From Thermoleophilia bacterium (GTDB taxonomy: Bacteria > Actinomycetota > Thermoleophilia > Gaiellales > SKUG01), in assembly GCA_025964405.1 (NCBI GenBank), contig JAOPYW010000005.1:1-35722 (forward strand): a DNA stretch of 35,722 nucleotides, given 5' to 3'. A program made the translations under genes and the position numbers. The notes beneath the pieces were generated by a model, which saw only the letters and a list, made by a program, of their open reading frames with translations, ran no database searches and was not told the DNA's origin. Shown one piece after another: positions 5,012-32,317 of the stretch. The stretch's first letter is position 1; every line of letters starts with the position of its first letter.

Positions 5012-5026
5012 GTAGCTGAGTGCTAC
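5012..5026. promoter_or_regulatory. Inverted repeat GTAGC-N5-GCTAC upstream of the second S8 peptidase (candidate operator)
   Basis: gtagctgagtgctac read directly. It is embedded in a 13-nt direct repeat GGCCAGTCGGTAG found at 5003-5015 and 5036-5048 (33-nt period). The centre is ~103 nt upstream of ATG 5122. Confidence 0.35.
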
Positions 5027-5121
5027 CAACTCGACGGCCAGTCGGTAGGATTTGCAGACCGTCTGGAGGCGGTCCATTGCCATGGAGGGCGATGGTCACA
5101 CACCAAGGAGGGTGGGAAACC

Positions 5122-6573: not shown

Positions 6574-6605
6574 GAAGGGCCCCGCCGGTGTCGGCGGGGC
6601 CCTTC
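6574..6605 (+). terminator. Hairpin terminator after S8 paralog 2
   Basis: gaagggccccgccg-gtgt-cggcggggcccttc forms a 14-bp perfect stem, 43 nt after the stop. The downstream tract is weakly T-containing (gtacgtt). Confidence 0.55.
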
Positions 6606-6842: not shown

Positions 6843-7877
6843 ATGGACATTCAGCGCGACTACCCCGAAATTGCCGACGTCACGATCATCGGCGGCGGAC
6901 CCTCCGGCCTGGCGGCGGCGTACTACGCCGGACACCGAGAGGCGACCGTGCGCATCATGGACACGCTGCCCGAGCTCGGTGGCCAGGTCATGGCGATGTA
7001 TCCCGAGAAGCACGTCTACGACGTCGCCGGCCATCCGAAGATCAAGGCGAGCGAACTGATCCGCCTCCAGTGCGAGCAGGCACTGCAGTTCGATCCGGAG
7101 ATCGTGCTCGAGGAGGATGCGACCGCGCTCGAGTACGTCGACGCCCCCGACGAGCCGAGCGGCCAGCTCATCCGCATCGTCGGCCTCGCGGGCCGCTCCT
7201 ACCTGACCCGCACGATCATCGTCACGGCCGGCCACGGCGCGTTCGAGCCGCGCAAGCTGCCGATCGAGGGCATCGACGGCTGGAACCACCGCGGCCTCTC
7301 CTACCTGGTCAAGCGCACCGCCGACTTCGCGAACAAGAAGGTCGTGCTCGTCGGCGGCGGCGACTCCGCCCTCGACTGGACGCTCGGCCTGCACGACATC
7401 GCGGCCGCACCGCTCACGCTCGTGCACCGCCGCGACCGGTTCCGCGCACTCGAGGGCTCGGTCACGCAGATGCGCAACCTCGCCGCGCACGGCAAGGTGA
7501 ACCTGATGGTGCCCTGCGAGGTCACGGCCATCCACGGCTCCGACCGCATCGAGGGCGTGACGATCACCAACGCCGACGACGGCGTCGAACACCACGAGGA
7601 GTGCGACGCACTCGTCACGCTGCTCGGCTTCAAGAGCGCGCTTGGGTCGATCGGTGACTGGCCGATCGAGTTCCACTCCAAGAAGCAGGTGCTCGTGAAC
7701 CCAGCCACGATGGAGACGAGCATGCCGCTCGTGTTCGCTGCTGGCGACGTGGCCGGGTACGAGAACAAGATCACGCTCATCACCATCGGCATGGGTGAGG
7801 CCGCGATCGCCGCCAACCGCGCGATCACGGTCTTCCGCCCCGAGGCGAAGGCCCAGCCGAAGTACTCATCGGAGTGA
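6843..7877 (+). CDS. Ferredoxin-NADP(+) reductase, thioredoxin-reductase-like type (YumC-like)
   Basis: FAD GxGxxG motif DVTIIGGGPSGLAAAYYAG. Also ELGGQ, a second nucleotide site VVLVGGGDSALDW and a C-terminal FAAGDVAGY. It lacks the CxxC of true TrxR. I moved the start to ATG 6843 (MDIQRDYPE...). Confidence 0.8.
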   Translation: MDIQRDYPEIADVTIIGGGPSGLAAAYYAGHREATVRIMDTLPELGGQVMAMYPEKHVYDVAGHPKIKASELIRLQCEQALQFDPEIVLEEDATALEYVDAPDEPSGQLIRIVGLAGRSYLTRTIIVTAGHGAFEPRKLPIEGIDGWNHRGLSYLVKRTADFANKKVVLVGGGDSALDWTLGLHDIAAAPLTLVHRRDRFRALEGSVTQMRNLAAHGKVNLMVPCEVTAIHGSDRIEGVTITNADDGVEHHEECDALVTLLGFKSALGSIGDWPIEFHSKKQVLVNPATMETSMPLVFAAGDVAGYENKITLITIGMGEAAIAANRAITVFRPEAKAQPKYSSE

Positions 7878-7881: not shown

Positions 7882-8598
7882 ATGACCGCATTCACCGGCA
7901 CGCTGACCTGGGTCAGCCACGGCACCTTCCTCGTCGAGACGGGGAGCGGCATGCGCATCCTGGTCGACGGGTTCGTGGAGAACTCGCCCACCACCCCCGA
8001 CTCGCTCAAGGGCGCGGGCCTCGGCGACCTCGACCACATCTTCGTGACCCACGGGCACGTCGACCACGTCGCCGACGTCGCCGCGCACCAGCAGCGCACC
8101 GGCGCGACCGTCTACGCGATCGTCGAGCTCGCGGGCTGGTTCGGCAACAACGGCATCGCCAGCGAGAAGCTCGTGGGCTTCAACAAGGGCGGCAGCATCG
8201 ACCTCGGCGACGTGTGCGTGACGATGGTCGATGCCAAGCACAGCTCCTCGACCCCCGACGGCGCGTATGCAGGCGACCCCGCTGGCTTCGTCTTCGAGTT
8301 TGCCGACGGATACACGATCTACTTCTCGGGTGACACGACCGTGTTCAGCGACATGGCGATCATCGGTGAGCTCTACGAGCCCGACCTGGCCGTGCTCTCG
8401 ATCGGCGACTTCTACACGATGGGTCCGCGCGAGGCCGCGAAGGCCGTCGAGCTGGTCGGCGCGCGTCACGTCATCGGCGGGCACTGGGGCACCTTCCCCG
8501 GCCTGACCGGCACGCCGACGAAGCTCGCCGAGCTGTTGGGCTCCACCGCGAAGGTGCACGAGCTGGCGCCGGGCGAGAGCTACCCGCCACGCCCCTAG
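7882..8598 (+). CDS. Metallo-beta-lactamase-fold metal-dependent hydrolase (UPF0173-like)
   Basis: ATG 7882 lies 5 nt after the upstream stop. HxHxDH motif THGHVDHVAD. Overall pattern LTWVSHGTFLVETG...ILVDGF typical of the UPF0173 family. Confidence 0.75.
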   Translation: MTAFTGTLTWVSHGTFLVETGSGMRILVDGFVENSPTTPDSLKGAGLGDLDHIFVTHGHVDHVADVAAHQQRTGATVYAIVELAGWFGNNGIASEKLVGFNKGGSIDLGDVCVTMVDAKHSSSTPDGAYAGDPAGFVFEFADGYTIYFSGDTTVFSDMAIIGELYEPDLAVLSIGDFYTMGPREAAKAVELVGARHVIGGHWGTFPGLTGTPTKLAELLGSTAKVHELAPGESYPPRP

Positions 8599-8668
8599 GG
8601 CGTGACCCTCGCCGCACCGGGTAGGAGCGGGGGAGCGCTGCCATTTCGGCGTCACTCCGGCGACGAGG

Positions 8669-9469
8669 ATGGTCATGAGCGAACACCAGAAGCAGATCGG
8701 GCGCAACGAGCACGACGCCCGGGCCAGCAACGAACTCGTGAGCGTCCAGGGCGAGCGCGCGGCCCTGTCGGGCGATTCGGAGCTTGCGGTGCTGTGCGAG
8801 TGTGGTGACGCCTCATGCCACAAGCCGCTGGTGATGACGGTCGACCAGTACGAGGAGATCCGCGCCGAGCCCGCGCAGTTCGCAGTGCTCGTCGGCCATG
8901 AGATGCCCACGGCCGAGGACGTCGTAGCGACGCGTGACGGGTACCTGATCGTCAGGAAGCATGGCGACGCGGGTGTCATCGCGAACGCCGGCGACCCGCG
9001 CAACCACCTCAAGACCTGCCGCGTCGTGCTGGTCGACGACATCCCGGAGATCAGGTTCCTGCTCAAGATGCTCCTGGCCGCCGAGCCGAGCTGCGAGGTC
9101 GTCGGTGAGGCGAGCAACGGCGCGGAAGCGATCGAGGTCGTCGACCGCACCCGCCCGGAGCTGGTCGTGCTCGACCTGGAGATGCCGGTCATGGACGGGT
9201 GGCACGCCCTCCCGCACCTGCGTCGAGTCGCTCCGACGTCCCACATCGTGGTCTTCTCCAGCGCGGCGATCGACGGGCGCCTCGAGAAGCGCCTGACGAA
9301 CCTCGGCGCCTCACGGTTCGTGCGCAAGGGCGGCGACCCCGCCATCGTGATCCAGGCGATCCGCGAGGTCGCCCAGGCGGGCCGCGACCGAACCTTCGCC
9401 ACGGCCGGCGAAGGTGGGCGCACCGCGGGCACCGGTGCCGACGTGGGCCGCCGCGAGGGCGACGACTGA
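8669..9469 (+). CDS. Orphan response-regulator receiver protein with Cys-rich N-terminal domain and no recognisable output domain
   Basis: REC domain VVLVDDIPEIRFLLKMLL...ELVVLDLEMPVMDGWHALPHLR...IVVFSS...KG. The N-terminal ~110 aa contain CECGDASCHKP. The start may be the second ATG at 8675, which has better spacing to GACGAGGA. Confidence 0.7.
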   Translation: MVMSEHQKQIGRNEHDARASNELVSVQGERAALSGDSELAVLCECGDASCHKPLVMTVDQYEEIRAEPAQFAVLVGHEMPTAEDVVATRDGYLIVRKHGDAGVIANAGDPRNHLKTCRVVLVDDIPEIRFLLKMLLAAEPSCEVVGEASNGAEAIEVVDRTRPELVVLDLEMPVMDGWHALPHLRRVAPTSHIVVFSSAAIDGRLEKRLTNLGASRFVRKGGDPAIVIQAIREVAQAGRDRTFATAGEGGRTAGTGADVGRREGDD

Positions 9470-9563
9470 ACGGACGATCCCGTGCGGCCACGACTCGTGC
9501 GGCGAGGGCCACCTGCCGTCGGGGGAGCTGTCGCGCGACCCACGCCTGCGCGATGCTCGACCG

Positions 9564-10709
9564 ATGCAGGTCGCAGCCCCCACCGTGCGCGCGAGCACCG
9601 GCCCCGTCGCGGGTCCGATCGCCGACGTCGTGCAGCAGGTCGTTGACCGTTGGCGCGTGGCGCACCACGTTCCGGCGGTCTACGCGTCGGTGCGACGAGC
9701 AGGCGCGGCCGTGGCTGACGTGGCCAGCGGCGTGAGCAACCTCGGCACCGGGCGCAGCGCGCGCCCCACCGACCGCCTGTGGGCTGCGAGCGTCACGAAG
9801 ATGATGACCGCGGCGATGACGCTCCGGCTCGCCGAGCGTGGGGAGCTGTCGCTCGCCGATCGCGTCTCGACGTGGCTGCCCGAACTTCCGGAGGCCGGCC
9901 GCATCACGGTGCGCCAGCTCCTCAACCAGACGGCGGGCATCCCCGAGCTCTGGGAGATCCCCGGCCTCGAGGCCGACATCCGCTCCCCCGACGCCGCCCA
10001 GTGGTCGGAGCGCCAGCTGCTCGACGGCATCGCGGGCCTGCCGCGCACGCACGCGCCCGGCAGCCGCTTCGCGTATTCGAACTCGAACTACACCGTGGCG
10101 GGTGCCATCATCGAACGCGTCACCGGCAAGCCGCTCGGCCAGGTCTTCGAGGAGGAGCTCGCGACGACGCTCAACCTCGACGCACCCGAGGCGCGCCTCG
10201 ACGACGCACACGGCGCCAAACCGTCGAACGTGCACAGCTACGTGCGCACGCCCGGCGCGCCGATGGACGGCACACCCTACTTCGGCACCGACTCGGTCTT
10301 CCGCAGCGTGCTGGCCGGGGCCGGCAACCTCGTCTCGACCGCGCCCGCACTGGCGCAGCTCGGCGAATCGATCCTCGCCCAGGACGGCGGGGCGCTCACC
10401 CCGAAGTCGCGCGCCGACATGCAGCGGCTCCGGCGAGACGGGCACTACGGGCTCGGCGTATACGGCGGGCCGATCGGCACCAACGGCGGCTTCCGGGGAA
10501 CCTTCGTCGGCCACAACGGCGCGTTCGACGTCGGCGCGGGCGCGTACCTCGTGCACGTGCCCGAGCGCAACGAGACGATCGCCGTCATGGCCAACACGCA
10601 GGTCGACGAGGCGGAGTGGGGCGAGCTGCTCGGCGCGATCGTCGACGCGACTGGCCCGGTGCGCCCGCCCGGCGCCGCCCCGAAGGCCATGTCGGCCACC
10701 GGAGCCTGA
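9564..10709 (+). CDS. Serine hydrolase, beta-lactamase/transpeptidase-like (class C-type fold)
   Basis: SxxK motif ASVTKMMTA and YxN motif YSNSNY. The track ORF starts at 9414 but that overlaps the upstream gene. ATG 9564 is my preferred start and remains uncertain. Confidence 0.75.
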   Translation: MQVAAPTVRASTGPVAGPIADVVQQVVDRWRVAHHVPAVYASVRRAGAAVADVASGVSNLGTGRSARPTDRLWAASVTKMMTAAMTLRLAERGELSLADRVSTWLPELPEAGRITVRQLLNQTAGIPELWEIPGLEADIRSPDAAQWSERQLLDGIAGLPRTHAPGSRFAYSNSNYTVAGAIIERVTGKPLGQVFEEELATTLNLDAPEARLDDAHGAKPSNVHSYVRTPGAPMDGTPYFGTDSVFRSVLAGAGNLVSTAPALAQLGESILAQDGGALTPKSRADMQRLRRDGHYGLGVYGGPIGTNGGFRGTFVGHNGAFDVGAGAYLVHVPERNETIAVMANTQVDEAEWGELLGAIVDATGPVRPPGAAPKAMSATGA

Positions 10710-13685: not shown

Positions 13686-14102
13686 TCAAGTGCTGACGTG
13701 GCCGTCTCGCAGCGCCGAAGGGCGCACTTGCCACCGCGAATGCGCCGTCTCCTCAGCCGCGATTCGGAACGTGTCCGGACCGCGCCCTATGCGGAGGTCG
13801 AACTTCGTGGCCTCGGTGAAATCCCGCCAGAAATAGGCGCCGACGATTCCCCCGCTCGCGCAGGCGGGAACAAGCGCCAGAAGCAGTTGAAACGCGTTCC
13901 ATTCGACCGGCACCACGATCACGTCGTTCCCATGACCCGGCCGGAGGTGGAACAGGAGCGTGAACAAGAACCACGCGACAACGGCAGCCCCGATCGATGG
14001 CCCGAGCACCGCGCTGCGGCCACGCTCGCAACGGTACGACGCGGTCGGTGACGGACGGGTCTGACCGACAAGCGCTGCGACCTGCTCCGTGAGATCGCTC
14101 AC
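13686..14102 (-). CDS. Hypothetical two-TM membrane protein, translationally coupled to DUF1015
   Basis: The GTG start at 14102 overlaps the upstream TGA (GTGA overlap). Two hydrophobic helices (AVLGPSIGAAVVAWFLFTLLFHL, AFQLLLALVPACASGGIVGAYFW). The region looks less GC-rich by eye than its neighbours. No homolog recognised. Confidence 0.4.
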   Translation of the reverse strand: MSDLTEQVAALVGQTRPSPTASYRCERGRSAVLGPSIGAAVVAWFLFTLLFHLRPGHGNDVIVVPVEWNAFQLLLALVPACASGGIVGAYFWRDFTEATKFDLRIGRGPDTFRIAAEETAHSRWQVRPSALRDGHVST

Positions 14103-15415
14103 AGCCCGATCAAGGAGGGATCCACCGCACGGTAGGCCACGCCGGTCGGAACCTTCGGGTAGTAGTAGGTCGACTTCTGGGGCAGCAGTTCGCCCGCCTC
14201 GGCCACCGCGTGGATGAGCATCGGGTCGATCTCGCGCATCACGAAGACGAGCGTGTCGGGGCCAGCGGCAGCCACTGCCTCATCGAGCACGCGCGTGTAG
14301 GAGACGCCGCCGCCCGCGGCGAGGTGGTCGGTCAGCACGGCGCCGCCGTCGAGCAGCAGTGCGTGCAGCGCGAGCACGTCGAGCTGGCGGGCGGCGTCGG
14401 CGCTGTCGGGAGCGGCGAGCTGCATGTCGAGCTCGTCGGGCACGGAGAGCAGGCGGATCGGTCGACCGCCGCCGAGCACCACGAAACCGGGCGCGTCGAG
14501 CAGCGCGAGCGCTGCGGTCGCCTCCTCGACCGTCGCGAACTCCTGGTCGGCGAAGGCGCCGGCCTCCACGATGAACCGGTCGAGCCGCGCCGGGTCGACG
14601 CCGCGCACGATGCGGTGGGTCGGGAAGACCACGATGCCGGGGTCGGCGCTGTTGACGACCATGGCCAGCACGCCGTTCTCCCACGAGCTCGACGTGTGGG
14701 GCGGTCCGACGTAGTCGGTGCCGCCGGCCTCGACGAGGTGCGGACGTCGCGCGTTCGCCTCCTGCTGGTACTCGAGCGCCGCGGTGTAGCGGTGATGCCC
14801 GTCGGCGATGAGCAGCGCGTGCGGTTCGACCGCGGCGGTGAACGCATCGGTCAATGCGATGTCGGTGACGAACCAGACCGCGCTCTGGGTGCCGTCGGCG
14901 TCGGTGCCGGTGAAGTCGGGCTCCTCGTCGGTCACCGAGGCGAACAGGTCGACGAGCGAGCGCTCGGGATCGTGATAGGCCAGGAAGACCGGACTGACGT
15001 TGGCGCCCGTGCCCCGCATGAGCTCGGTGCGCGCCTTGCGCGGGCCGTCGAACGTGCGCTCGTGCGGCAGCACGACACCCGAGCCGAACGGTGCCAGTCC
15101 GACTTCGCAGCAGACCGCGGTGCGCTCCCGACGTACCCCATCAGGGCCCACGAAGCGCTGGCGAACGACCGCGACACCGACCTCGCCCGCCGCGAGCGCG
15201 CCGCTCTCCAGCCAGTCGCGCAGCAGGCGGCCTGAGGTCGAGCTGAATCCGTCGGCCGGCACTTCGACGTTCATCGCCTGGTGGACGCTGCCGAGCGCGA
15301 TCGCATCGCGCTGCTCCGTCGTCACCACGTCGTAGGGCGGCGCGAGGAGTCGCCCCGGGTCACCGACCACGTCGGCGTCGTACCTGATGATGGGAAATGC
15401 GCGAGCTTCGGCCAT
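14099..15415 (-). CDS. DUF1015 domain-containing protein
   Basis: Only the 3' 438 codons of the 1002-aa track ORF are credible. Start ATG 15415 (MAEARAFPIIRYD...). The LLAPPYDVV motif and a ~440-aa length are typical of DUF1015. Confidence 0.75.
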   Translation of the reverse strand: MAEARAFPIIRYDADVVGDPGRLLAPPYDVVTTEQRDAIALGSVHQAMNVEVPADGFSSTSGRLLRDWLESGALAAGEVGVAVVRQRFVGPDGVRRERTAVCCEVGLAPFGSGVVLPHERTFDGPRKARTELMRGTGANVSPVFLAYHDPERSLVDLFASVTDEEPDFTGTDADGTQSAVWFVTDIALTDAFTAAVEPHALLIADGHHRYTAALEYQQEANARRPHLVEAGGTDYVGPPHTSSSWENGVLAMVVNSADPGIVVFPTHRIVRGVDPARLDRFIVEAGAFADQEFATVEEATAALALLDAPGFVVLGGGRPIRLLSVPDELDMQLAAPDSADAARQLDVLALHALLLDGGAVLTDHLAAGGGVSYTRVLDEAVAAAGPDTLVFVMREIDPMLIHAVAEAGELLPQKSTYYYPKVPTGVAYRAVDPSLIGL

Positions 15416-15505
15416 GTCCGCAAGCCTATCGCGTGGCCGGACCCGGGCGGGCGCGACTGCCGACCTGCCGCCCCTGCCCCGCCTGCACCGATACAGTGCA
15501 GCCTG

Positions 15506-16369
15506 ATGAGCGGTGACACACGCATAGCTGACGTCGCGCCCGGCCAGACGGTCGAGGGTGTCTACGCGGTCGTGCGCAAGCAGCGCCGCCTCGACAAGAA
15601 CGGCGACGCCTACCTCGTCGTCGAGCTGAGCGACCCGACCGGGCGCATCGAGGGCCGCATCTGGAAGAACGCCGACTGGTTCGACCGCAACATCCGCGAG
15701 GGCGATCGCGTTCGGGCCGTGGGGCGGGGCTCGAAGTTCCGCGACCAGGTGCAGCTCGAGATCCGCCGCCTCGACAAGCTCGAGCTCGACGGCAGTGATG
15801 CACCGACGGAGGCGTTCATCCCGGCCACGTCGCGTGACGCCGACGACCTCGCGGGGGAGCTCGACTTCCTCATCAGCGAGATCACGCACCCGGAGCAGCG
15901 CGCGCTGTGCGAGGCCGTGTGGCAGGGGCCGCTGCGCGACGACCTGCTCCACTCGCCGGCGACGGCGCTCGACCACCACGCCCATCTCGGCGGCCTCGTC
16001 GAGCACACGATCGCGGTGACCACGATCTGTCAGGCGGCGGCCGACCGGCATCCCAGCCTCGACCGTGACCTGCTGACCACGGCGGCGCTGCTGCACGACA
16101 TCGGTCGCGCGAAGGAGCTGCGCGCCGAGCTCGTGATCGAGGTCGACCGGGCGGGCGGGCTCGTCGGACACGTGCTGCTCACGCACGAGCTGCTGCTCGG
16201 CGCCGCGCTCGACGCGCGCCTCGACGTCAACGCCACGCCGTGGTGGCCCCAGTTCGTGCATGCCGTCAGCTCCCACCACGGACCCACCGAGCGCTGCCGC
16301 ACCCGCGAGGCCGTGGTGCTGGTCTCGGCGAACGCGCTCGACGCGCGCCTCGCCCAACGCGACCGCTGA
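15506..16369 (+). CDS. OB-fold + HD-domain nuclease (YhaM-like 3'-5' exoribonuclease family)
   Basis: Start ATG 15506 (MSGDTRIADV...). OB-fold region VEGVYAVVRKQRRLDKNGDAYLVVELSDPTGRIEGRIW. HD motifs HHAHLGGLVEHT and LLHDIGR. Confidence 0.65.
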   Translation: MSGDTRIADVAPGQTVEGVYAVVRKQRRLDKNGDAYLVVELSDPTGRIEGRIWKNADWFDRNIREGDRVRAVGRGSKFRDQVQLEIRRLDKLELDGSDAPTEAFIPATSRDADDLAGELDFLISEITHPEQRALCEAVWQGPLRDDLLHSPATALDHHAHLGGLVEHTIAVTTICQAAADRHPSLDRDLLTTAALLHDIGRAKELRAELVIEVDRAGGLVGHVLLTHELLLGAALDARLDVNATPWWPQFVHAVSSHHGPTERCRTREAVVLVSANALDARLAQRDR

Positions 16370-16447
16370 GGGCCGCGCGGCGGCCACCAAGGCCACCTGT
16401 TCGCCGCGGCGATTGCCGCCCCCTCGTTCGAGCGTGAGACTTGCGGC

Positions 16448-17095
16448 ATGATGATCCGCCGACTCCTCCCACAGCGTCACCGCATCCTCTTCGTGGTCGC
16501 GTTCGTACTGCTTCGCCTGGCGATCTACTCGATCTTCCTGTTCAAGTTCTTCGTGCTCATGACGCTGCCCCAGTCGATCCTGGCCTACGTCGCGAGCCTC
16601 GCGATCATCGCGGGCATCTGGAAGCTGGCCGGCTGGTACGTGCCCAAGCACGCCGGCGGCTCCCAGCAGGCCGGACCGATCGTGCATCCCCTCGTCGGCG
16701 CACCCGGCCAACTCGCCGGTGGAGCCGTGGCGACCGCACCGGTTGCCGCAGCCGCAACCGCCCCCGCAGCAGCCCCCGCAGCCGCCCCGCCACTGACGCC
16801 GGCATCGACCGCACCGAGCGCAGCGCCGGTCGCGCCCACCGCGCCCGTTCCCGCCGCAGCTGACGTCGCGGTGAACATCTTCGCGGTGCCCGCGATGCGC
16901 GTGACGGCCCCCGTGCTCGCCGCCGAGCCCACGGTCGTCGCGCCGATCGCGCCGGCCGCTCCCCATGACTCGGCCGCAGCCCTCGTCGCCGCGATGGGCT
17001 CGACCTGGCCGACCACCGCCGGCCCGAGCTTCGAGCGCCCCCTTCCGGCGTGGACGCCGCCGGCCGCGCCGCAGTTCACCGGCGCCCGCGCCTAG
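16448..17095 (+). CDS. Hypothetical membrane protein with Ala/Pro-rich low-complexity C-terminal half
   Basis: The N-terminus has three hydrophobic helices (ILFVVAFVLLRLAIYSIFLFKFFVL, ILAYVASLAIIAGIWKLAGW). The opposite-strand ORFs lack any such structure, so I prefer the plus strand. Confidence 0.45.
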   Translation: MMIRRLLPQRHRILFVVAFVLLRLAIYSIFLFKFFVLMTLPQSILAYVASLAIIAGIWKLAGWYVPKHAGGSQQAGPIVHPLVGAPGQLAGGAVATAPVAAAATAPAAAPAAAPPLTPASTAPSAAPVAPTAPVPAAADVAVNIFAVPAMRVTAPVLAAEPTVVAPIAPAAPHDSAAALVAAMGSTWPTTAGPSFERPLPAWTPPAAPQFTGARA

Positions 17096-17154
17096 CGCGC
17101 ACACCAAGGGCCCGCATCAGCGAGCCCTCGGCCGGTCTTCATCTATGGCGGTCG

Positions 17155-23632: not shown

Positions 23633-24147
23633 CCCGCGCCCGTCGCCTGCTCCGGTTCGGCGTCCTCGCCGTGCTCGTCGTCACGCTCGGCGTGTTCGCG
23701 GGCGGCTGCCGCAAGGTCATCTCCGACGTGCTGCTCGAGAGCCTCGTCTCCGACTACTACTACGACATCTCGACGGTGCGCGTCGACGTGCGCTGCCCGG
23801 AGGGCAAGACGCTGCGCACCGACAACGACTTCTTCTGCCACATCTACCGTGACGGAAAGCGTACCGGCCAGGTGCTCGTGCTCCCCCAGGACGACTACGG
23901 CCGCATGATCGTCAGCATCGAGACCCCGCTCGACATGGAGATCGTGCTTCCCTTCCTCAAGGACTGGCTCCGCCGCGACCAGCCCCAGCTCGTGGGCAAG
24001 CGCATCACGTGTCCCGAGGACATCATCCGCGAACCCGACCGCAACTTCGCCTGCCGAGTCGGCTCCCGCCGCGTCGAGGTGCGGCAGGTCGACGGCGTGT
24101 CGACGTTCGTCTTCAACCTGCTCGCGAAGGGCCAGAAGGTCCAATGA
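23629..24147 (+). CDS. Hypothetical lipoprotein (two Cys-pair repeats, DUF4333-like)
   Basis: The ATG overlaps the rarA stop. Signal peptide plus lipobox VVTLGVFAGGC. Two repeated C...C modules (VRCPEG...FFCHI and ITCPED...FACRV). Confidence 0.5.
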   Translation: MTRARRLLRFGVLAVLVVTLGVFAGGCRKVISDVLLESLVSDYYYDISTVRVDVRCPEGKTLRTDNDFFCHIYRDGKRTGQVLVLPQDDYGRMIVSIETPLDMEIVLPFLKDWLRRDQPQLVGKRITCPEDIIREPDRNFACRVGSRRVEVRQVDGVSTFVFNLLAKGQKVQ

Positions 24148-24947
24148 CCGATGCCGCCATCACCACCGTCGGCCTCACGCGCAGCTACGGCGCGACGAAG
24201 GCCGTCGACTCGCTCGACCTGCAGGTCGGTCCGGGGGAGCTGTTCGCGCTGCTCGGACCCAACGGTGCAGGCAAGAGCACGACGATCTCGATGCTCACCA
24301 CGCTCCTGCGCCCCGACGCCGGCTCGGCGACCGTCGCCGGCTTCGACGTGGTGCGCGAGCGCCGCGACGTGCGCCGCTCGATCGGCATCGTGTTCCAGGA
24401 TCCGACGCTCGACCTGTACCTCACCGTGACGGAGAACCTGCGCTTCCACGCGACCCTCTACGACATGGGGCGCGCCGACAGCACTGCGCGCATCCGGGAG
24501 CTGCTCGAACTGGTGGAGCTCGGCGAACGCCGCGACGACCTCGTGCGCACGCTGTCGGGCGGCCTGCGACGACGCCTCGAGCTGGCGCGCGCGCTCATGC
24601 ACCGTCCGAAGGTGCTCTTCCTCGACGAGCCGACGCTGGGGCTCGATCCACGCGCGCGTGCCTCGGTCGCCGAGCAGATCGACGGGCTGCGCGCCTCGCA
24701 GGGCACGACCGTCGTGCTCACGACGCACTACCTCGCCGAGGCCGAGCGGTGCGACCGCGTGGCGATCATCGACCGCGGCGTCATCGTCGCGCACGACACG
24801 CCCGACGCGCTCCGTGCGCAGGTGAGCCCCACGGCGACGCTCGACGACGTCTTCCTCCACGTCACGGGTCGGCCGATCGCCGACGAGGAACCATCGCTCG
24901 CCGACATGGGCCGAGACACCGACCGCCAGCGATCGGGCCGTGGATGA
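24144..24947 (+). CDS. ABC transporter ATP-binding protein (ABC-2/DrrA-like exporter type)
   Basis: ATGA overlap with the upstream gene. Walker A GPNGAGKST, signature LSGGLRRRLELA, Walker B VLFLDEPT. Confidence 0.9.
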   Translation: MTDAAITTVGLTRSYGATKAVDSLDLQVGPGELFALLGPNGAGKSTTISMLTTLLRPDAGSATVAGFDVVRERRDVRRSIGIVFQDPTLDLYLTVTENLRFHATLYDMGRADSTARIRELLELVELGERRDDLVRTLSGGLRRRLELARALMHRPKVLFLDEPTLGLDPRARASVAEQIDGLRASQGTTVVLTTHYLAEAERCDRVAIIDRGVIVAHDTPDALRAQVSPTATLDDVFLHVTGRPIADEEPSLADMGRDTDRQRSGRG

Positions 24948-25768
24948 GGGCCGAGCTCCGCACCATCGCCATGGTCGCGCGCCGCGAGCTGCTGACGTTC
25001 CGGCGCAACCCGGCGCGCATGCTCGTCACGCTCGTGCAGCCCGTGGCCTTCCTGCTCATCCTCGGCGCAGGGCTCGACGCTGCCGCGCAGGCCGTCGGCG
25101 GGCTCGACTACCGTTCCTACATCTTCCCCGGCGTGGTCGGCATGGCGGTCATCATGCCGGCGTTCTTCGCGGCGGGCAGCGTGGTCTACGACCGCGAGTT
25201 CGGGTTCCTGCGGGAGATGCTCGCCGCGCCCGTGAGTCGCTGGTCGATCGTGCTCGGCAAGTGCGTGGGCGGAGCGACGATCGCGGCGCTCCACGGCGCC
25301 GTCGTCGTGGCGTGCGCGGGGCTCGTCGAAGTGCCCTACACCGTCGGCATGGTGCTCGGCCTGCTCGGCCTCGCCTGGCTCCTCGGCTTCATGCTCGTGG
25401 CCTTCGGGCTCGTCATCGCCGCCCGTGCGCGGCAGTTCCAGAACTACATGTCGACGGTGAACCTCATCGCGATGCCGATGCTGCTCGCATCGGGCGCGCT
25501 GTTCCCCCTCAGCGGCCTCCCTGACTGGCTCGGTGTGGTCACGCGACACGATCCGCTCGCCTACGTGGTCGATCCGATGCGGCGCATCGTCTTCCCGCTC
25601 CTCGACTTCAGCCAGCCAATCGCCCAGCAGATCTACCTGGTGCCCTCCGAAGCCCGCGTGACATGGGGCGACACCGTCGTTTCCGTGTGGCTGGAATTGG
25701 GACTGTTGGTGGGCATTACGGTGGTCTCACTGATTACCGCGGTGCGGCGGTTGGACCGTGACGACTAG
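24944..25768 (+). CDS. ABC-2 type transporter permease
   Basis: ATGA overlap with the ATPase gene. Six hydrophobic helices. N-terminal RRELLTFRRNPARML is typical of ABC-2 permeases. Confidence 0.8.
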   Translation: MRAELRTIAMVARRELLTFRRNPARMLVTLVQPVAFLLILGAGLDAAAQAVGGLDYRSYIFPGVVGMAVIMPAFFAAGSVVYDREFGFLREMLAAPVSRWSIVLGKCVGGATIAALHGAVVVACAGLVEVPYTVGMVLGLLGLAWLLGFMLVAFGLVIAARARQFQNYMSTVNLIAMPMLLASGALFPLSGLPDWLGVVTRHDPLAYVVDPMRRIVFPLLDFSQPIAQQIYLVPSEARVTWGDTVVSVWLELGLLVGITVVSLITAVRRLDRDD

Positions 25769-25844
25769 GGGCAGTATGCTCAGTAACGAATGCCCCTCCT
25801 TGCTACGATACGCAGGGAGAAGCCACCTGCTCAAGGAGAACGTC

Positions 25845-25919
25845 ATGACCTGGACCAAGCCGTCATTCACCAAGCTCGAGCTCGCGTGTGAGGTCACCCT
25901 CTACCGCCACGCTCGCTGA
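25845..25919 (+). CDS. pqqA: PqqA, precursor peptide of pyrroloquinoline quinone (24 aa; absent from the ORF track)
   Basis: ATG 25845 to TGA 25917-25919, with AAGGAGA at 25833-25839. Translation MTWTKPSFTKLELACEVTLYRHAR contains the invariant PqqA E-x-x-x-Y core (E16 VTL Y20) and the W-x-x-P N-terminal pattern. It sits directly upstream of pqqBCDE. Confidence 0.8.
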   Translation: MTWTKPSFTKLELACEVTLYRHAR

Positions 25920-25943
25920 GACCACGTCTCACCTGAGTTTCAG

Positions 25944-25975
25944 GGGCCGCTCCGATACCGGAGCGGCCCTTTTTT
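25944..25975 (+). terminator. Intrinsic terminator/attenuator between pqqA and pqqB
   Basis: gggccgctccg-atac-cggagcggccc forms an 11-bp perfect GC-rich stem followed by TTTTTT (25970-25975). It starts 25 nt after the pqqA stop and ends just before pqqB. Confidence 0.7.
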
Positions 25976-25981
25976 CATGCC

Positions 25982-26911
25982 GTGTGCGAGATACTTCCGG
26001 TCGTGAGCTCGCTTCAGGTACGCATCCTTGGTTCGGCCGCTGGCGGTGGGTCGCCCCAGTGGAACTGCAACTGCACCGTCTGCACGGCCGTGCGGCGCGG
26101 CGACGCGGGCACCCGGCCGCGCATGCAGTCGTCGCTCGCGATCCGATCCGGCGACGGGCCATGGCTGCTGGTGAACGCCTCCCCCGACGTGCACCGCCAG
26201 GTCGAACTCATGCCTGCGGAGCACCGCGAGGCCGGCGGCCGCTCGACGCCGTTCGCCGGCGTGCTGCTCACCGACGCGGAGATCGACCACGCATCGGGCC
26301 TGTTGCTGCTCCGGGAATCCACCGAACCGCTCCAGCTGTTCGCGACCGCGCAGGCGCACGGCGCGCTCACCGACGAGTGGCCACTCGTGACGATGCTCTC
26401 CGACTGGTGCGGGGTCGACTGGCGCGAACTGCGAGCCGGGTCGTCGACGCGCCTCGACGGCTTCGGCCTCACCGCCGACTGCTTCACCACGGGGGAGGAC
26501 GCGCCGCGCTACCAGCGCTCGCCCGGCGGGCCCGGCACGTCGATCGGCATCACCTTCCGCAGCGCCGGTGGGCAGACCCTCACCTACTGCCCGACGATCG
26601 AGGCCTGGAGCGACGAGCTCCGCACGCGGCTCGCGGCGAGTGACCTCGTGCTCGTCGACGGCACCTTCTGGGGCGCCACCGAACTGGCCGACGAAGGGCT
26701 CGGCACCCGCTCGGCGCGCGACATGGGACACGTACCGCTCGGCGGCGACGACGGCACGGCTGCCGAACTCGCCCGCCTCGACACCCGCGCGGTGGTCGTG
26801 CACGTCAACAACACCAACCGCATCCTGCTCGAGGGGTCGGCCGAGCGCGCCGCACTCGAGGCGCTCGACATCACCGTCGCCCACGACGGCCTGCTGCTGG
26901 AGATCACATGA
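25982..26911 (+). CDS. pqqB: PqqB, PQQ biosynthesis protein B (metallo-beta-lactamase fold)
   Basis: [30 protein letters not shown] and [13 protein letters not shown] match PqqB hallmark motifs. The start is uncertain (GTG 25982 or GTG 26003, neither with a strong RBS). Confidence 0.9.
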
Positions 26912-27657
26912 CGGTGCAGACCACCGCTCCCCTGACCTACTTCGACCTCGCCGGCGTCGATCCGTGGTCGCGCGAGGAGTTCACCGCGCAGCTGCGCGCC
27001 AACGGCCGGTCGTACCACGATCGCCACCCGTTCCACGTGCGGATGAACGCCGGGGAGCTGACGCGCGAGGAGCTCGCGCGGTGGGTCGCCAACCGCTTCG
27101 CGTACCAGCAGGTGATTCCGCGCAAGGACGCCGCGATCCTCGCGAACTGCGACGAACGACAGGTGCGGCGCGACTGGATCAGTCGCATCCTCGACCACGA
27201 CGGCGACGCCGAACGCGAGGGGGGCATGCGCTCCTGGGTGCAGCTCGGCGAGGCGATCGGGGTGACGGGCGATGAGCTGTGGAGCGGCGTGCACGTGCTG
27301 CCGGCCGTGCAGTTCGCATGCGACGCCTACCTCAATTTCTGCAGGACGCAGCCGTGGATCATCGGGGTCGCGTCGTCGCTCACCGAGCTCTTCGGACCGG
27401 ACGCCATCCGGGTGCGCATCGCCGCGATGGAAGCCAGCTACCCGTGGATCGACCCCGCCGGGTTCGACTACTTCCGCGAGCGACTGACGCTCGCGCCGCG
27501 CGACGCCGACTACGCCCTCGAGCTCGTGCTCGAGCGCTGCACGACGCGCGCGCTGCAACAGGCGGCCGTCGATGCGCTCGCGTTCAAGATCGACATGTTG
27601 TGGGCCCAGCTCGACGCGATCGCCCTGGGTGACACCCGACCGAAGGAAGCACGATGA
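26908..27657 (+). CDS. pqqC: PqqC, pyrroloquinoline-quinone synthase
   Basis: ATGA overlap with pqq[48 protein letters not shown] is typical of PqqC. 249 aa. Confidence 0.9.
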
Positions 27658-27926
27658 GTGACGTCCACGTTCCCCGACTGGCCTCCGGCGTGCGGCTGCA
27701 CCGCGACGAGGTGCGGGCCCGCGACGTGCTGCTGTTCCCCGAGGGGGCGCTCGTGCTCAACGATACGGCGACCCAGGTGCTCGCGTTCTGCGACGGTGTG
27801 CGAACCTTTGACGAGGTGGTCGCGGCGGTGTCGGAGCTCTACGGCGGAGCCGACGTGCGCGACGACGTGGCGGAGCTCCTCGCCGGTATTCGCGACCAGG
27901 GATTGATGGACCGAGATGACGAGTAA
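27654..27926 (+). CDS. pqqD: PqqD, peptide chaperone (RRE domain)
   Basis: ATGA overlap with pqqC. 90 aa. Pattern [41 protein letters not shown]. Confidence 0.85.
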
Positions 27927-29064
27927 TGCACCGCAGGTCGCAGGCCAGGGGGTCGGTATCCCGTACCCCCTCCTGCTGGTCGCCGAGCTCTCCTACGTGT
28001 GCCCGCTCCACTGCCCGTACTGCTCCAACCCGACGGGCATCCTCGGCACGAAGCGCTCCACCGAACTCAAGACCGACGACTGGACCCGCGTGTTCGGCGA
28101 GGCGGGCAAGCTCGGCGTGCTGCAGCTCGCGCTGACCGGCGGCGAACCGCTCCTGCGCAAGGACCTCGAGGAGCTCTGCACCGCCGGGCGCGACGCGGGC
28201 ATGTACTCCACACTCGTGACGAGCGCGCTGCCGAACCTCACCGAGCGCCTTCCCGGGCTGCAGGCGGCGGGCCTCGACCACGTGCAGATCTCGATCCAGC
28301 ACTCCAACCGTGAGGAGTCGGACCGCATCGGAGGCGCCGTCTCCTACGACAAGAAGCTGGAAGCGGCGCGACGGGTCGTCGAACTCGGCATGCCGCTGAC
28401 GATCAACGTCGTGCTGCACCGCGACAACCTCGACGACGTCGGTGAGCTGATCGACCTAGCGGCCAGTCTCGGCGCGCGCCGCCTGGAGCTCGCGAACACG
28501 CAGTACCACGGCTGGGCGACGGTCAACCGCGCAGCGCTCCTGCCCACGCTCGAGCAGGTCACGCGGGGCGAGCAGGTCGTCAACGAGAAGCGCGCCCAGT
28601 ATGGCTCGAGCCTGGACATCCTCTGGGTGCTGCCCGACATCTTCGAGGACCTGCCCAAGCCCTGCATGGGTGGCTGGGCGAGTGACGCGATCATCCTCGA
28701 TCCGACCGGCCGCGCGCTCCCGTGTCAGTCGGCGGCGACGATTCCGGACCTCGAGCACCTCTCGGTGACCGAACACTCGCTGTTCGACATCTGGTTCGAC
28801 TCGGAGACGTTCAACCGGTTCCGCGGCACCGACTGGATGCAGGACCCCTGCCAGACGTGTCCGCTCCAGCGCCAGCACATCGACTTCGGTGGTTGTCGGT
28901 GTCAGGCCCTGGCACTCACGGGTGACATCACGGCCACCGATCCGGTGTGTCACCTCTCGCCCCATCACGGCGCGCTCGTCGCGAAGCGTGAGGAGCTGCT
29001 CGCCGTGCGCGACGAGGACCGCCCGGCCTACGTCTACCGCACCACGAGCCCCGCGCGCGGCTAG
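27916..29064 (+). CDS. pqqE: PqqE, radical SAM/SPASM enzyme forming the Glu-Tyr crosslink in PqqA
   Basis: 11-nt overlap with pqqD. LLLVAELSYVCPLHCPYCSNP (CxxxCxxC). C-terminal SPASM cysteines (PCMGGW, LPCQSA, CQTCP, GGCRCQA). Confidence 0.9.
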   Translation: MTSNAPQVAGQGVGIPYPLLLVAELSYVCPLHCPYCSNPTGILGTKRSTELKTDDWTRVFGEAGKLGVLQLALTGGEPLLRKDLEELCTAGRDAGMYSTLVTSALPNLTERLPGLQAAGLDHVQISIQHSNREESDRIGGAVSYDKKLEAARRVVELGMPLTINVVLHRDNLDDVGELIDLAASLGARRLELANTQYHGWATVNRAALLPTLEQVTRGEQVVNEKRAQYGSSLDILWVLPDIFEDLPKPCMGGWASDAIILDPTGRALPCQSAATIPDLEHLSVTEHSLFDIWFDSETFNRFRGTDWMQDPCQTCPLQRQHIDFGGCRCQALALTGDITATDPVCHLSPHHGALVAKREELLAVRDEDRPAYVYRTTSPARG

Positions 29065-29092
29065 CGACCGCTGAGCGGCGCCTGCGGCTGGT

Positions 29093-29587
29093 TCAACTAG
29101 CGTGCTCGGCGATGAGGTCCGTGATGCGCTCGTCGGCGTCCAGCACTTCGCGCTCGATGGTCCGCCGCGCCTTCTCGTCGCCCTGGGCGGCGCTCGTCGG
29201 GGTGATGCTGTGCGCTACCGTCGCGGCACGCCTGAGGCTCGCCTTGAGCTGCGCGTGGTCGCCGGCGACGTCCGCGGGTGGCGTGATGGCTCCCACCTGC
29301 GCGATGGCGACATCGAGCTGCCGGGCAGCGGCGGCCGACGCCGCCGGGGTAGTGGCGGCCGCGAGGGCGGCCGCGGCACCGTCGAGCGCTGAGTCGGCGT
29401 CCGTGAGCGCCGTCGCGTAAGCCCGCTCCTCCTTGCTCGGGGCACCCGCGGCCGGGTTCGACGTGGAGGTCGCTATGGCCCCTGCGGACTTCTCGCGTTC
29501 GGCCTCCCCACAGCCGCCCATGGCCAGTGCAGCCACGGCGAGCAGGCTGGGGAGGGCGAGGTGTCGAAGACGCACGGTGAGAGACAT
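29093..29587 (-). CDS. Hypothetical Ala-rich lipoprotein, last gene of the cytochrome c / PQQ-dehydrogenase transcription unit
   Basis: Signal peptide plus lipobox LLAVAALAMGGC. 164 aa, predicted helical, no family recognised. Same strand as the dehydrogenase and 135 nt downstream of it. Confidence 0.5.
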   Translation of the reverse strand: MSLTVRLRHLALPSLLAVAALAMGGCGEAEREKSAGAIATSTSNPAAGAPSKEERAYATALTDADSALDGAAAALAAATTPAASAAAARQLDVAIAQVGAITPPADVAGDHAQLKASLRRAATVAHSITPTSAAQGDEKARRTIEREVLDADERITDLIAEHAS

Positions 29588-29721
29588 GTCCCGATCATAC
29601 GCCCGCTACCGACCACAGCGTCAGGCGGCCCAGAGACCCGCTCCCCCACGCAGAACGGGGCCCGGCTGCTGCCGGACCCCGTCCCGTACTCCGTCCCGTG
29701 CGTCGTCTCCGACGCAGGGGA

Positions 29722-31761
29722 TCAACCCTGGTTGGCGTCACTGTTCGCCGCATCGCCCGTCTCGGAGGAGGTGGCAGCGTCGTCCTGCCCTTCCTTGCCG
29801 GTCTGGTCAGCGTTGGCGTCAGCGGTCACTTCACCGGCGTGTGCGCCAGCTTCGTCGGTACCGTCGGTACCGGAGAGCTGGTCGAGCTTACCGTCGAGCG
29901 AGAGCACCCACAGGTTGTCGCCGTGCGGCGACGCTGCGAGTGAGTTACCACCGGCCACGATGGCGAGCTTCTGCTTGCCAGCGTCCTCGAACACCGTGAC
30001 GGTGCTGTTGGCACCGGCGCCGAGCTGGAAGCTCCAGAGCTTCTTGCCGGCGTCGGCGGAGTAGGCCTCGAGGTGACCGTCGCTGTTACCGACGAACACC
30101 AGGTTGCCTGCAGTGGTGACCGAACCCGAGTAGCAGCTCGTCGGGAAGTCGACGGCCCACTCGATCTCACCCGTGTCAGCGTTGATGGCCGTGAGGCTAC
30201 CCGGTGAGCTGAACGGCAGTGCGGCGAGGATGGAGCCGATGCGAACATCGCCCTCGACGCGCTCGGCGACACCTGACGGGTACACGCCCTCGACGCCATC
30301 GGTCGAGCAGACGTAGATCAGGTGCGTCTTGTGGTTGTACGACGACGGCTGCCAGTTCGTACCACCCGTTGCGCCGTTGGCGATGACCGCCACGGTGCCC
30401 GGGCCGGACGGCTGCCAGACGGAGTTCGCGTCACCGGTGCCACGGACAGCCTTGAGGTTCTTGCCCTCAGGCGTGCCCTGCACGAGCTTCACGACCGAGT
30501 TGAACTCGGCGTCGCTGATGTCGTGGTCCGAGAACGGCGCGTACTGCGGTACGGGCTGCGTCGGCGACGTCTTCTGCTGTGCGTTCTGTGCGACCGGCGT
30601 CTCCTCAATGGGCCACACGGGCTCACCGGTTCGACGATCGAGTGCGTAGAGCCAACCGGTCTTCGCGGCCTCGGCTACGACCGGAACGGTCTTACCGTCG
30701 ATCTTCGCGTCGTACAGGAAGGTCGGGCTCGGCTGGTCGTAGTCCCAGATGTCGTGGTGCGTCGTCTGGTAGTGCCACTTGTACTCACCGGTCTTGGCGT
30801 CGAGTGCCACGAACGAGGCGGCGAACAGGTTGTCGCCCTCGCGAGCGGAACCGTCGACGTCGGGGTTCGCGTTACCCGTGGTGAAGTACAGCATGCCCAG
30901 CTTCGGATCAACCGACGGGGTCTGCCAGATCGGAGCGCCACCCGTGAGGGCACTGTCGCCCGCCCAGGTCTTGGCGAACTCGGGATCACCCTCGGGACCG
31001 GCGGTCGTGAAGAACTTCCAGTCCTCCTTGCCCGTCTTCGCGTCGAGTGCGACCAGCTTGCCACGCACGCCGTACTCGCCACCGGTGATGCCGGTGTAGA
31101 TGCGGCCGTCGTAGTAGAGGGGAGCTGCGGTGATGCCGCCGTTCTCCTTCTTCCAGTTCACCACTTCGGTGTCCCAGACCTGCTTGCCGGTGTCCTGGTC
31201 GAGCGCGACCATGTGACCGTCGAGCTTGCCGATGTAGACGTTGCCATCACCGATGGCGACGCCACGGCTCAGCCAACCGCAGCAGACGGTGGAGATGTTC
31301 TCGTCGAGGTTGCCCTCGTACTTCCACTTCTGCTTGCCGGTCTTCACGTCGAAGGCGAAGACGTCGTCCTCACCCGTCGGTACGTAGAGCACGCCGTTGT
31401 AGACGAGCGGCTGCTCCTCGTGCGAGTACTTGGCCTCGGTGCCCGACTGGAGGTCGGCCATCCAGTCGCCCTTGACGTCGGCGACGTTGGTGTCGTTGAT
31501 CTGGGTCAGCGGGGAGTAGCGATCATTCCTGAGCGTACCGCCGTTGGTGATCCAATTTTCCTTGGGCAGCGTGTTGAGCTGCTTGGAGGTGAAGGCCGGG
31601 AAGGTCGCCGGCGTACCGCCGTCGCTACCCGAGTTGTCGCTGCTGTCGCTACCGCACGCGGCCACGCCGAGTGCGCTCACGACGACGAGCGCAACCGCGG
31701 TGGCGCCACGCCACCAGCGGGTCCGCGGACTGGCCGCGGCGTTTCGCTTGAAGATCTGCAT
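29722..31761 (-). CDS. Type I PQQ-dependent alcohol/methanol-family dehydrogenase (quinoprotein, 8-bladed propeller), lipobox-anchored, with Ln-type D-Y-D motif
   Basis: Vicinal CC (TVCCGW, 31279-31284). GGEYGVRG. Repeated xALDAKTGKxxW blade motifs. TTGNANPD. THHDIWDYDQ with D343/D345 (30736-30744). Lipobox ALGVAACGS. Preferred start is ATG 31761; the track uses GTG 31770. Confidence 0.9.
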   Translation of the reverse strand: MQIFKRNAAASPRTRWWRGATAVALVVVSALGVAACGSDSSDNSGSDGGTPATFPAFTSKQLNTLPKENWITNGGTLRNDRYSPLTQINDTNVADVKGDWMADLQSGTEAKYSHEEQPLVYNGVLYVPTGEDDVFAFDVKTGKQKWKYEGNLDENISTVCCGWLSRGVAIGDGNVYIGKLDGHMVALDQDTGKQVWDTEVVNWKKENGGITAAPLYYDGRIYTGITGGEYGVRGKLVALDAKTGKEDWKFFTTAGPEGDPEFAKTWAGDSALTGGAPIWQTPSVDPKLGMLYFTTGNANPDVDGSAREGDNLFAASFVALDAKTGEYKWHYQTTHHDIWDYDQPSPTFLYDAKIDGKTVPVVAEAAKTGWLYALDRRTGEPVWPIEETPVAQNAQQKTSPTQPVPQYAPFSDHDISDAEFNSVVKLVQGTPEGKNLKAVRGTGDANSVWQPSGPGTVAVIANGATGGTNWQPSSYNHKTHLIYVCSTDGVEGVYPSGVAERVEGDVRIGSILAALPFSSPGSLTAINADTGEIEWAVDFPTSCYSGSVTTAGNLVFVGNSDGHLEAYSADAGKKLWSFQLGAGANSTVTVFEDAGKQKLAIVAGGNSLAASPHGDNLWVLSLDGKLDQLSGTDGTDEAGAHAGEVTADANADQTGKEGQDDAATSSETGDAANSDANQG

Positions 31762-31912: not shown

Positions 31913-32317
31913 CTAGCTCTTCAGGCCGCCGGCGACGAAGTCGGCGACCGCCTTGATCTCCTCATCGCTCAGCTGGCCCTTGAATGCCGGCATGCCGCCG
32001 CCACCGTTGGACACCTGCTCGATGTTGTGTGCCGCATCGCTCTGCGACGAGATGTCGGGACCGCCGTTGCCGCCGGTGCCCTTCTGGCCGTGACAGATGG
32101 TGCAGTTGTTGAGGAAGACCGACTTGCCGCTCACGGCTTCGGTGTTCGTCGCGGCCGTCTCCGTGTTCGTGGAGGTGCTGGCCGTCGGCGCCGTGCCGGT
32201 CTTGCCCGAATCGCCATCCTTGCTGTCGCCGCCACAGGCGGAGACGAGGAGTGCGACGGCCAGGACGAGCAGGAGCGCTGCTCCGCGGCGGTAGCGATCT
32301 GTCGTGCGTGCGTACAT
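31913..32317 (-). CDS. Class I c-type cytochrome, lipobox-anchored (candidate electron acceptor of the PQQ dehydrogenase)
   Basis: Single CxxCH (NNCTICHG) with distal Met in GGGGMPAF. Signal peptide plus lipobox LLVSACGG and a Thr/Ser-rich linker. It lies 142 nt upstream of the dehydrogenase on the same strand. Confidence 0.8.
   Translation of the reverse strand: MYARTTDRYRRGAALLLVLAVALLVSACGGDSKDGDSGKTGTAPTASTSTNTETAATNTEAVSGKSVFLNNCTICHGQKGTGGNGGPDISSQSDAAHNIEQVSNGGGGMPAFKGQLSDEEIKAVADFVAGGLKS

Follow-up and report, generated by a model that had tools for sequence, protein, structure and literature searches.

The question raised by contig JAOPYW010000005.1 of a Thermoleophilia bacterium assembly (GCA_025964405.1) is whether an open reading frame (ORF) of only 24 codons, standing in front of four larger genes of pyrroloquinoline quinone (PQQ) biosynthesis, is the precursor peptide gene pqqA, and what role may be played by the GC-rich hairpin with six T residues that separates it from pqqB. 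The window considered here is the whole analysed stretch of 35,722 nucleotides (nt), positions 1 to 35,722 of the forward strand. According to the data presented below the locus is an ordinary example, in a soil actinobacterium, of the well-known, standard pqqABCDE operon. The reading of the whole element, to which a probability of about 0.85 is assigned, is that of a complete operon in which the hairpin and U6 tract after pqqA would set an excess of pqqA, with read-through into pqqB-E.

The pqqA gene and its start codon

The original prediction, made from the DNA letters, placed the small ORF between ATG 25845 and TGA 25919 with AAGGAGA in front of it, and all these coordinates hold on re-reading (Table 1); the sequence before the start reads AAGGAGAACGTC-ATG. 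The product is 24 amino acids (aa) long, the mean length of PqqA being 23 aa (PMC3023750), and its translation contains E16-V-T-L-Y20, where Glu16 and Tyr20 are four residues apart, in the E-x-x-x-Y spacing that had been proposed. When the peptide was compared with PqqA models, as the prediction had suggested, it exceeded both cutoffs, with 24.2 bits for TIGR02107 (cutoff 20) and 25.5 bits for PF08042 (cutoff 21.1). A PqqA profile built from the relatives only and searched against six frames of the window returned this ORF with E = 2e-12 and a runner-up ORF with E = 6.8, and no second pqqA copy was found by this search on either strand of the window. Two further, independent metagenome assemblies (L081 and L082) contain the same 251 bases around pqqA without a difference, which rules out an assembly artefact. 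At the level of sequence comparison the identity of the 24-codon ORF as PqqA is fully supported.

The start codon deserves separate consideration, since a gene caller applied to the identical Logan metagenome contig (L081, positions 1869-2012) gave a 47-aa in-frame ORF from ATG 25776, and a collection of 15 billion protein sequences contains this over-extended form instead of the true 24-aa PqqA, which is absent from it. These two records are the support for the alternative that the true gene is a longer in-frame ORF (47 aa from ATG 25776, or 53 aa from GTG 25758) or that the small ORF arose by chance, an alternative whose probability is judged negligible. In the 14 close relatives the peptide begins at the equivalent Met, in register, and a GGAGG-type Shine-Dalgarno (SD) sequence lies 6-8 nt upstream of this Met in all 14, whereas the translation upstream of it is not conserved. 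In three relatives (L003, L005, and L011) in-frame stops stand 1-2 codons before the Met, which together with the lack of upstream conservation fixes the short start, and the alignments to TIGR02107 and PF08042 begin at residue 2-3 of the short peptide. Thus, by comparison of the related sequences, the start question is settled in favour of the short form.

Genes pqqB to pqqE

The four genes that had been assigned to pqqB, pqqC, pqqD, and pqqE from their motifs each score above the curated cutoff of the respective NCBIfam equivalog model (Table 1), and the proposal of an intact pqqABCDE operon is borne out, with all five products above curated family cutoffs. The pqqE product has the CPLHCPYC radical S-adenosylmethionine (SAM) motif and C-terminal SPASM Cys clusters. 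The overlaps between the genes were also confirmed: pqqB and pqqC have ATGA in common at 26908-26911, pqqC and pqqD at 27654-27657, and pqqD and pqqE overlap by 11 nt (27916-27926).

The start of pqqB, 84 nt after the pqqA stop, is most likely GTG 26003 (302 aa), with GTG 25982 as a possible alternative; the former is preferred because the TIGR02108 alignment begins at residue 12 of the longer product and the gene call on L081 uses 26003. An SD sequence is not visible before pqqB, and the distance between the T-tract and GTG 26003 is only 27 nt, so that room for a conventional pqqB promoter is lacking. A consensus sigma-70 promoter scan of positions 24500-30500 found nothing, either before pqqA or before pqqB. 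In Solirubrobacterales relatives a GCAGTAC motif recurs about 20 nt before the ATG; GCAGTAT at 25771-25777 is its possible counterpart in the window and is not established as a promoter.

In the window only the protease is missing from the parts list of the PQQ pathway. Among approximately 37 codon-biased ORFs of the window none matched Peptidase_M16 (PqqF/PqqG type), and all codon-biased ORFs of more than 400 aa belong to other families, in agreement with the earlier statement that the cluster has no pqqF or pqqG. The pqqF gene is absent from the cluster in many PQQ producers, and its absence here is taken to mean only that this protease is encoded elsewhere.

The hairpin between pqqA and pqqB

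The predicted element was found again at the coordinates given for it, as a perfect stem of 11 base pairs (bp; 25944-25954 with 25959-25969) with a 4-nt loop ATAC, directly followed by T6. Additional G-U and A-U pairs lengthen the stem to 13 pairs, 10 of them G-C, with a span of 25942-25971. With a local minimum free energy (MFE) of -35.3 kcal/mol (z = -4.9) the element folds better than every one of 200 dinucleotide shuffles. Thus, the element combines the sequence features of an intrinsic terminator: a GC-rich stem, a loop of 3-8 nt, and a U-tract directly after the stem on the sense strand.

Such a combination is rare in this DNA. Perfect hairpins of at least 9 bp occur three times in the whole window, and the pqqA hairpin is the sole one with a T-run after it; the T6 at 25970-25975 is the sole T6 or A6 run in the 35,722 bases, and none of 30 dinucleotide-shuffled windows contained a comparable stem with 5 or more T among the 8 nt after it. 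The idea of a dispersed repeat was rejected, as the element is not repeated.

Table 1. Coordinates of the pqq operon, its hairpin, and the neighbouring genes within the 35,722-nt window
Feature	Position	Strand	Description
ABC-2 type exporter pair	24144..25768	+	ATPase 24144-24947, permease 24944-25768; Pfam ABC_tran, ABC2_membrane
Shine-Dalgarno AAGGAGA of pqqA	25833..25839	+	GGAG 6 nt before ATG; sequence reading
pqqA	25845..25919	+	24-aa PQQ precursor peptide MTWTKPSFTKLELACEVTLYRHAR; ATG 25845-25847, TGA 25917-25919
Intrinsic-terminator-like element	25942..25975	+	13-pair stem, loop ATAC, T6 25970-25975; fold and positional equivalents in relatives
pqqB (metallo-beta-lactamase fold)	26003..26911	+	TIGR02108 324.3 bits vs cutoff 245
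pqqC, PQQ synthase	26908..27657	+	TIGR02111 294.9 bits vs cutoff 240
pqqD, stand-alone peptide chaperone	27654..27926	+	TIGR03859 66.7 bits vs cutoff 46
pqqE, radical SAM/SPASM enzyme	27916..29064	+	TIGR02109 455.7 bits vs cutoff 381
Ala-rich lipoprotein, 164 aa, no known family	29093..29587	-	Lipobox
PQQ-dependent alcohol-type dehydrogenase, 682 aa	29722..31770	-	PF01011 331.8 bits; lipoprotein signal; convergent with pqqE
Small c-type cytochrome	31913..32317	-	PF13442 and PF00034; CxxCH motif, lipobox; syntenic in L001

Related loci in Actinomycetota

A scan with PqqC over one genome per species gave 228 confirmed relatives, and the loci of the best 80 of these 228 were compared. The best PqqC match is from a Thermoleophilia metagenome-assembled genome (MAG) with 74% identity, followed by Solirubrobacterales, Conexibacter, and Gaiellaceae MAGs (63-69%) and by many Streptomyces, Amycolatopsis, Pseudonocardia, Saccharopolyspora, Kineosporia, and Actinomycetospora genomes (53-61%); these six genera together with Thermoleophilia make up most of the best 80. 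The original remark that PQQ biosynthesis is uncommon in Gram-positive lineages is therefore overstated, since dozens of actinobacterial genera have pqq operons. By an earlier estimate PQQ biosynthesis is present in about 10% of genomes (PMC3023750). A literature search on PQQ in Thermoleophilia returned nothing relevant.

A pqqA-like ORF precedes pqqB in 72 of the 80 loci. For 83 pqqA copies the 70 nt after the stop codon were folded and set against every 70-nt window of the locus concerned: by MFE, 67% of the copies rank among the lowest 5% and 43% among the lowest 1%, with a median z of -2.2. The stems of the relatives are commonly of 10-20 pairs and begin 5-25 nt after the pqqA stop, their sequences are unrelated between clades, and in nine alignable Solirubrobacterales loci a 24-pair consensus includes 6 pairs with compensatory double changes. 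The low MFE across loci, the differing stems, and the compensatory changes indicate, as far as comparative evidence goes, that selection across Actinomycetota acts on a stable structure placed immediately after pqqA, within genes that are otherwise closely packed. A U-tract after the hairpin is clear in the window (U6) and in two relatives (L001 and L012) and partial in the upstream pqqA copies of Actinomycetospora. The hairpin after pqqA, as a structure often without a U-tract, may be a near-universal device for the expression ratio in Actinomycetota.

Some loci of the set have unusual arrangements. Eight Actinomycetospora loci (L045, L054, L055, L060, L066, L069, L073, and L077) have two copies of pqqA separated by about 1.25 kb (positions ~3600-3740 and ~4820-5000), each with its own hairpin of 15-20 bp, the upstream copy often having a short T-rich tail. 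In Saccharopolyspora rosea (L074, ~7420-7490) a second pqqA-like ORF (..WRTPDFEELVCSSEVTMYMMRMQD) is located within the operon, after pqqC and before pqqD, the latter being displaced. Finally, a MAG labelled Longimicrobiales of the Gemmatimonadota (L011) has a Thermoleophilia-like pqq operon (PqqC 65%) without the ATP-binding cassette (ABC) transporter pair described below, and Zoogloea (Betaproteobacteria) loci among L052-L080 rank with the actinobacterial matches (PqqC 52-53%); for both of these cases horizontal transfer or mis-binning is possible.

How the operon would work

In the proposed mechanism PqqE, helped by PqqD, would cross-link E16 and Y20 of PqqA, PqqB and PqqC would complete the cofactor, and the last proteolytic trimming would be left to a protease encoded elsewhere. 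Since one PqqA peptide would be spent per PQQ and PqqB-E would act catalytically, far more pqqA product would be needed, and the operon would accordingly be built to favour pqqA output. The strong SD sequence (ribosome-binding site) would serve pqqA translation, the GC hairpin with U6 would halt most transcripts after pqqA and shield the resulting short RNA from 3' exonucleases, and a minority of polymerases would continue into pqqB, which has no SD sequence, with pqqC, pqqD, and pqqE translationally coupled via their overlapping stop and start codons. The finished PQQ would go to the lipoprotein-anchored PQQ dehydrogenase and cytochrome c encoded convergently downstream. For pqqB-E read-through is the economical reading, because the gap of 27 nt is so short and no promoter-like site was detected there by the scan.

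Ramamoorthi and Lidstrom reportedly described in 1995 a stem-loop after pqqA in Methylobacterium extorquens and Klebsiella pneumoniae. In Pseudomonas brassicacearum an RNA-seq study gave for pqqA a log2 value of 12.77 transcripts per million against 5.96-6.86 for pqqB-E (PMC6722718), and in Gluconobacter oxydans the operon has no promoter other than the one before pqqA, a putative pqqBCDE promoter being inactive (PMC8102297). The original prediction that the window would use the same stoichiometry trick is well supported by comparison, as a strong hairpin recurs after pqqA in most of the 83 copies with unrelated stems.

Several observations weigh against this mechanism. According to one report (PMC3993855), mycobacterial and actinobacterial RNA polymerase needs a U-tract for intrinsic termination, and the hairpins of most relatives lack it (0-2 T in the next 8 nt), so that the conserved function of the hairpin may be RNA stabilisation and not termination. 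In addition, the terminator of the window would be strong by E. coli rules, and sufficient read-through is hard to account for. A simple terminator scan gave 1 loose match in the real 6 kb against a mean of 1.4 in shuffles, and the MFE of the 70 nt after the window's pqqA stop is only at the 12th percentile of the GC-rich background, which is unimpressive because coding sequence of 70% GC folds strongly; thus, for the window the case for the hairpin depends on how long the stem is, on the T6 run, and on the pattern among the relatives. It is tentatively possible that the hairpin is mainly an RNA-stability element that, once the RNA has been cut by an endonuclease or terminated elsewhere, blocks 3'-to-5' exonucleases, by which the pqqA segment outlives pqqB-E with little termination, as the long GC stems with few T residues after pqqA in most related loci and the reported need of mycobacterial polymerase for a U-tract suggest. 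This explanation has to reckon with the canonical U6 directly after the stem, the sole such run in 35.7 kb, and with the U-rich tails of L001 and L012, according to which termination is mechanistically available in the window. It predicts the same outcome as partial termination by another molecular step, and the two are not mutually exclusive: the U-less hairpins of the relatives and the reported U-tract requirement of mycobacterial polymerase speak for stabilisation as the ancestral function, and the U6 of the window would make termination available too.

The two other explanations concern the supply and the control of pqqB-E transcription. The hairpin could be a full terminator of an ABC-transporter-pqqA or a pqqA-only transcript, with pqqBCDE transcribed from its own promoter, possibly leaderless from GTG 26003. 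A -10-like GATACT (25990-25995, with A2 and T6) lies 7 nt upstream of GTG 26003, which is the right distance, pqqB is without an SD sequence like leaderless genes, and the terminator appears strong; however, there is no -35 element at usable spacing, the gap after the T-tract is short (27 nt), the consensus promoter scan was empty, the relatives share no TAnnnT-like motif upstream of pqqB, and the corresponding putative promoter of G. oxydans is inactive (PMC8102297), by which this possibility is made unlikely. Classical regulated attenuation, in which pqqA translation or a ligand would toggle between antiterminator and terminator, is very improbable. A short translated ORF before a terminator gives the locus a superficial likeness to leader-peptide attenuators, but in the fold of the whole pqqA transcript the terminator stem is kept in both the MFE and the centroid structure, with no competing structure that could act as an antiterminator, and a gathering-threshold Rfam search of the whole window gave 0 matches. 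Also, the pqqA stop is 23 nt before the stem, outside the footprint of a terminating ribosome, and for this reason ribosome-coupled attenuation at pqqA is unlikely. Consequently the term "attenuator" of the original prediction can be kept only loosely, in the sense of a partial terminator, and not for the regulated type.

The linked ABC-2 exporter pair

The genes directly upstream of pqqA, in the same orientation, encode an ABC-2 type exporter pair and may be co-transcribed with pqqA. Against NCBIfam the pair gave DrrA/DrrB as the best matches and also matched PedA/PedC-like families ("PQQ-dependent alcohol dehydrogenase system" ABC families), all below cutoff. The pair adjoins the pqq genes in 13 of the 14 Thermoleophilia-type loci (L001-L010, L012, L013, and L018), being placed before pqqA in the window and L001 (88-1000) and directly after pqqE in L002-L010, L012, L013, and L018 (~8040-10000), and no such pair was found within 6 kb in the other 66 loci. 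The ATPase is orthologous across 12 related loci with 48-61% identity, and the permease is 65% identical in L001, whose contig ends inside the permease gene.

To our knowledge, no protein has so far been identified as a PQQ exporter in any organism. The pair, which stays next to pqq despite rearrangement, is a candidate for this missing exporter, which in a monoderm cell would carry PQQ made in the cytoplasm to the lipoprotein-anchored, possibly lanthanide-dependent, dehydrogenase outside the membrane, although this assignment is doubtful. In M. extorquens an unrelated ABC exporter was only hypothesised for PQQ (PMC7391723).

Dehydrogenase, cytochrome, and lipoprotein neighbours

A PQQ dehydrogenase is adjacent to pqq in the window and in most relatives. 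The enzyme of the window, likely the client of PQQ, scores 412 bits against TIGR03075, below the cutoff of 480, and its closest solved structures are quinoprotein alcohol dehydrogenases; it possesses a lipoprotein signal (..GVAAC) and vicinal cysteines (STVCCGW) and is syntenic in L001 with 68% identity. The aligned sequences read WDYDQ in this enzyme, WDFDG in 6zcv, and WDFTA in the Ca-type 1kv9. The D-x-D pattern, in which an extra Asp stands two residues after the catalytic Asp, is a mark of lanthanide-dependent quinoprotein alcohol dehydrogenases of XoxF/PedH type, to which this enzyme may possibly belong.

The dehydrogenase is flanked by the small cytochrome c, its likely electron acceptor, and by the 164-aa protein, and all three carry lipoboxes, which suggests a membrane-tethered extracytoplasmic quinoprotein electron-transfer module of a monoderm cell. 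A 231-aa ORF without a family is also among the four downstream genes convergent with pqqE.

Other features of the window

The longest perfect hairpin of the window is found at 6574-6605 (14 bp, GAAGGGCCCCGCCG-GTGT-CGGCGGGGCCCTTC), without a T-run, just after an S8 peptidase gene ending at 6531, and is probably a U-less terminator or stabiliser. The preceding plus-strand region (1920-6531) contains paralogous S8 subtilase genes (1920-3362 and 5020-6531) around an extracytoplasmic function (ECF)-type sigma factor gene (3478-4056) and an ORF of 316 aa without a family; this module is probably unrelated to pqq. On the minus strand a 1002-aa ORF (14099-17107) has DUF1015 (residues 570-891) as its sole recognised domain and none in the N-terminal 570 residues. 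A tRNA search of the window found none.

Comparison with known systems and significance

The gene order A-B-C-D-E is the same as in the pqqABCDE(F) operons of K. pneumoniae, Pseudomonas spp., G. oxydans, and M. extorquens, which likewise combine a precursor of about 23-24 aa with W-x-x-P ... E-V-T-x-Y, a radical SAM/SPASM PqqE, and a stand-alone PqqD; the Klebsiella PqqA peptide has EVTLY too. In contrast to these proteobacterial systems, the neighbourhood in the window is without a pqqF/pqqG gene of the M16 peptidase type, the operon is accompanied by an ABC-2 exporter pair, and the host is a monoderm high-GC actinobacterium, in which the dehydrogenase and cytochrome are lipoprotein-anchored rather than periplasmic. 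Among actinobacteria, the pqq cassette of Mycobacterium smegmatis has a single linked PQQ-dependent dehydrogenase (PMC3023750) and is therefore similar in having one dehydrogenase in the same cassette, while the class of the window is different (Thermoleophilia-type).

With regard to the precursor, the PqqA of the window belongs to the short 24-aa "...YRHAR" type which is common to Solirubrobacterales and proteobacterial-like, whereas Streptomyces, Amycolatopsis, and Pseudonocardia loci, like most Actinomycetes in the set, encode a longer acidic-tailed PqqA ("WETPEF...EVTMYVAQLDD"). The Solirubrobacterales/Thermoleophilia MAG loci that carry the ABC-2 pair are the nearest counterparts, with a near-identical PqqA of 23-24 aa (MKWTKPAFKTLELASEVTAYRYTR; MWVKPTFTKLELASEVTLYRHAR in L001), a hairpin after pqqA, and the linked pair, as in the window, and one peptide of the Solirubrobacterales type already bears the name PqqA in IMG. 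In L001 synteny is complete, with the permease, pqqA-E, and then convergent cytochrome c and dehydrogenase. By similarity and synteny the host is most likely a member of the class Thermoleophilia. These loci differ in that most place the ABC-2 pair after pqqE and have no U-tract, and in that PqqC is only 63-74% identical, according to which the window represents a species or genus distinct from those MAGs.

The hairpin itself resembles internal partial terminators and stabilising hairpins in general, where a stable stem-loop likewise separates a first gene in high demand from the genes that follow it in the operon; it is unlike regulated riboswitch or leader-peptide attenuators, as folding of the transcript gave no alternative structure.

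In summary, the locus adds nothing new on how PQQ is made; it widens the range of the "hairpin after pqqA" design, which now includes Thermoleophilia and many further Actinomycetota. The linked ABC-2 pair is the sole lead with some novelty, as a testable candidate for how PQQ leaves the cytoplasm. The practical gain is the corrected annotation, by which a missing or mis-started pqqA is restored: with the 47-aa call as the only form in the protein collection, automatic annotation would score the PQQ pathway as incomplete. With pqqA restored, the organism would be able to make its own PQQ for the adjacent dehydrogenase.

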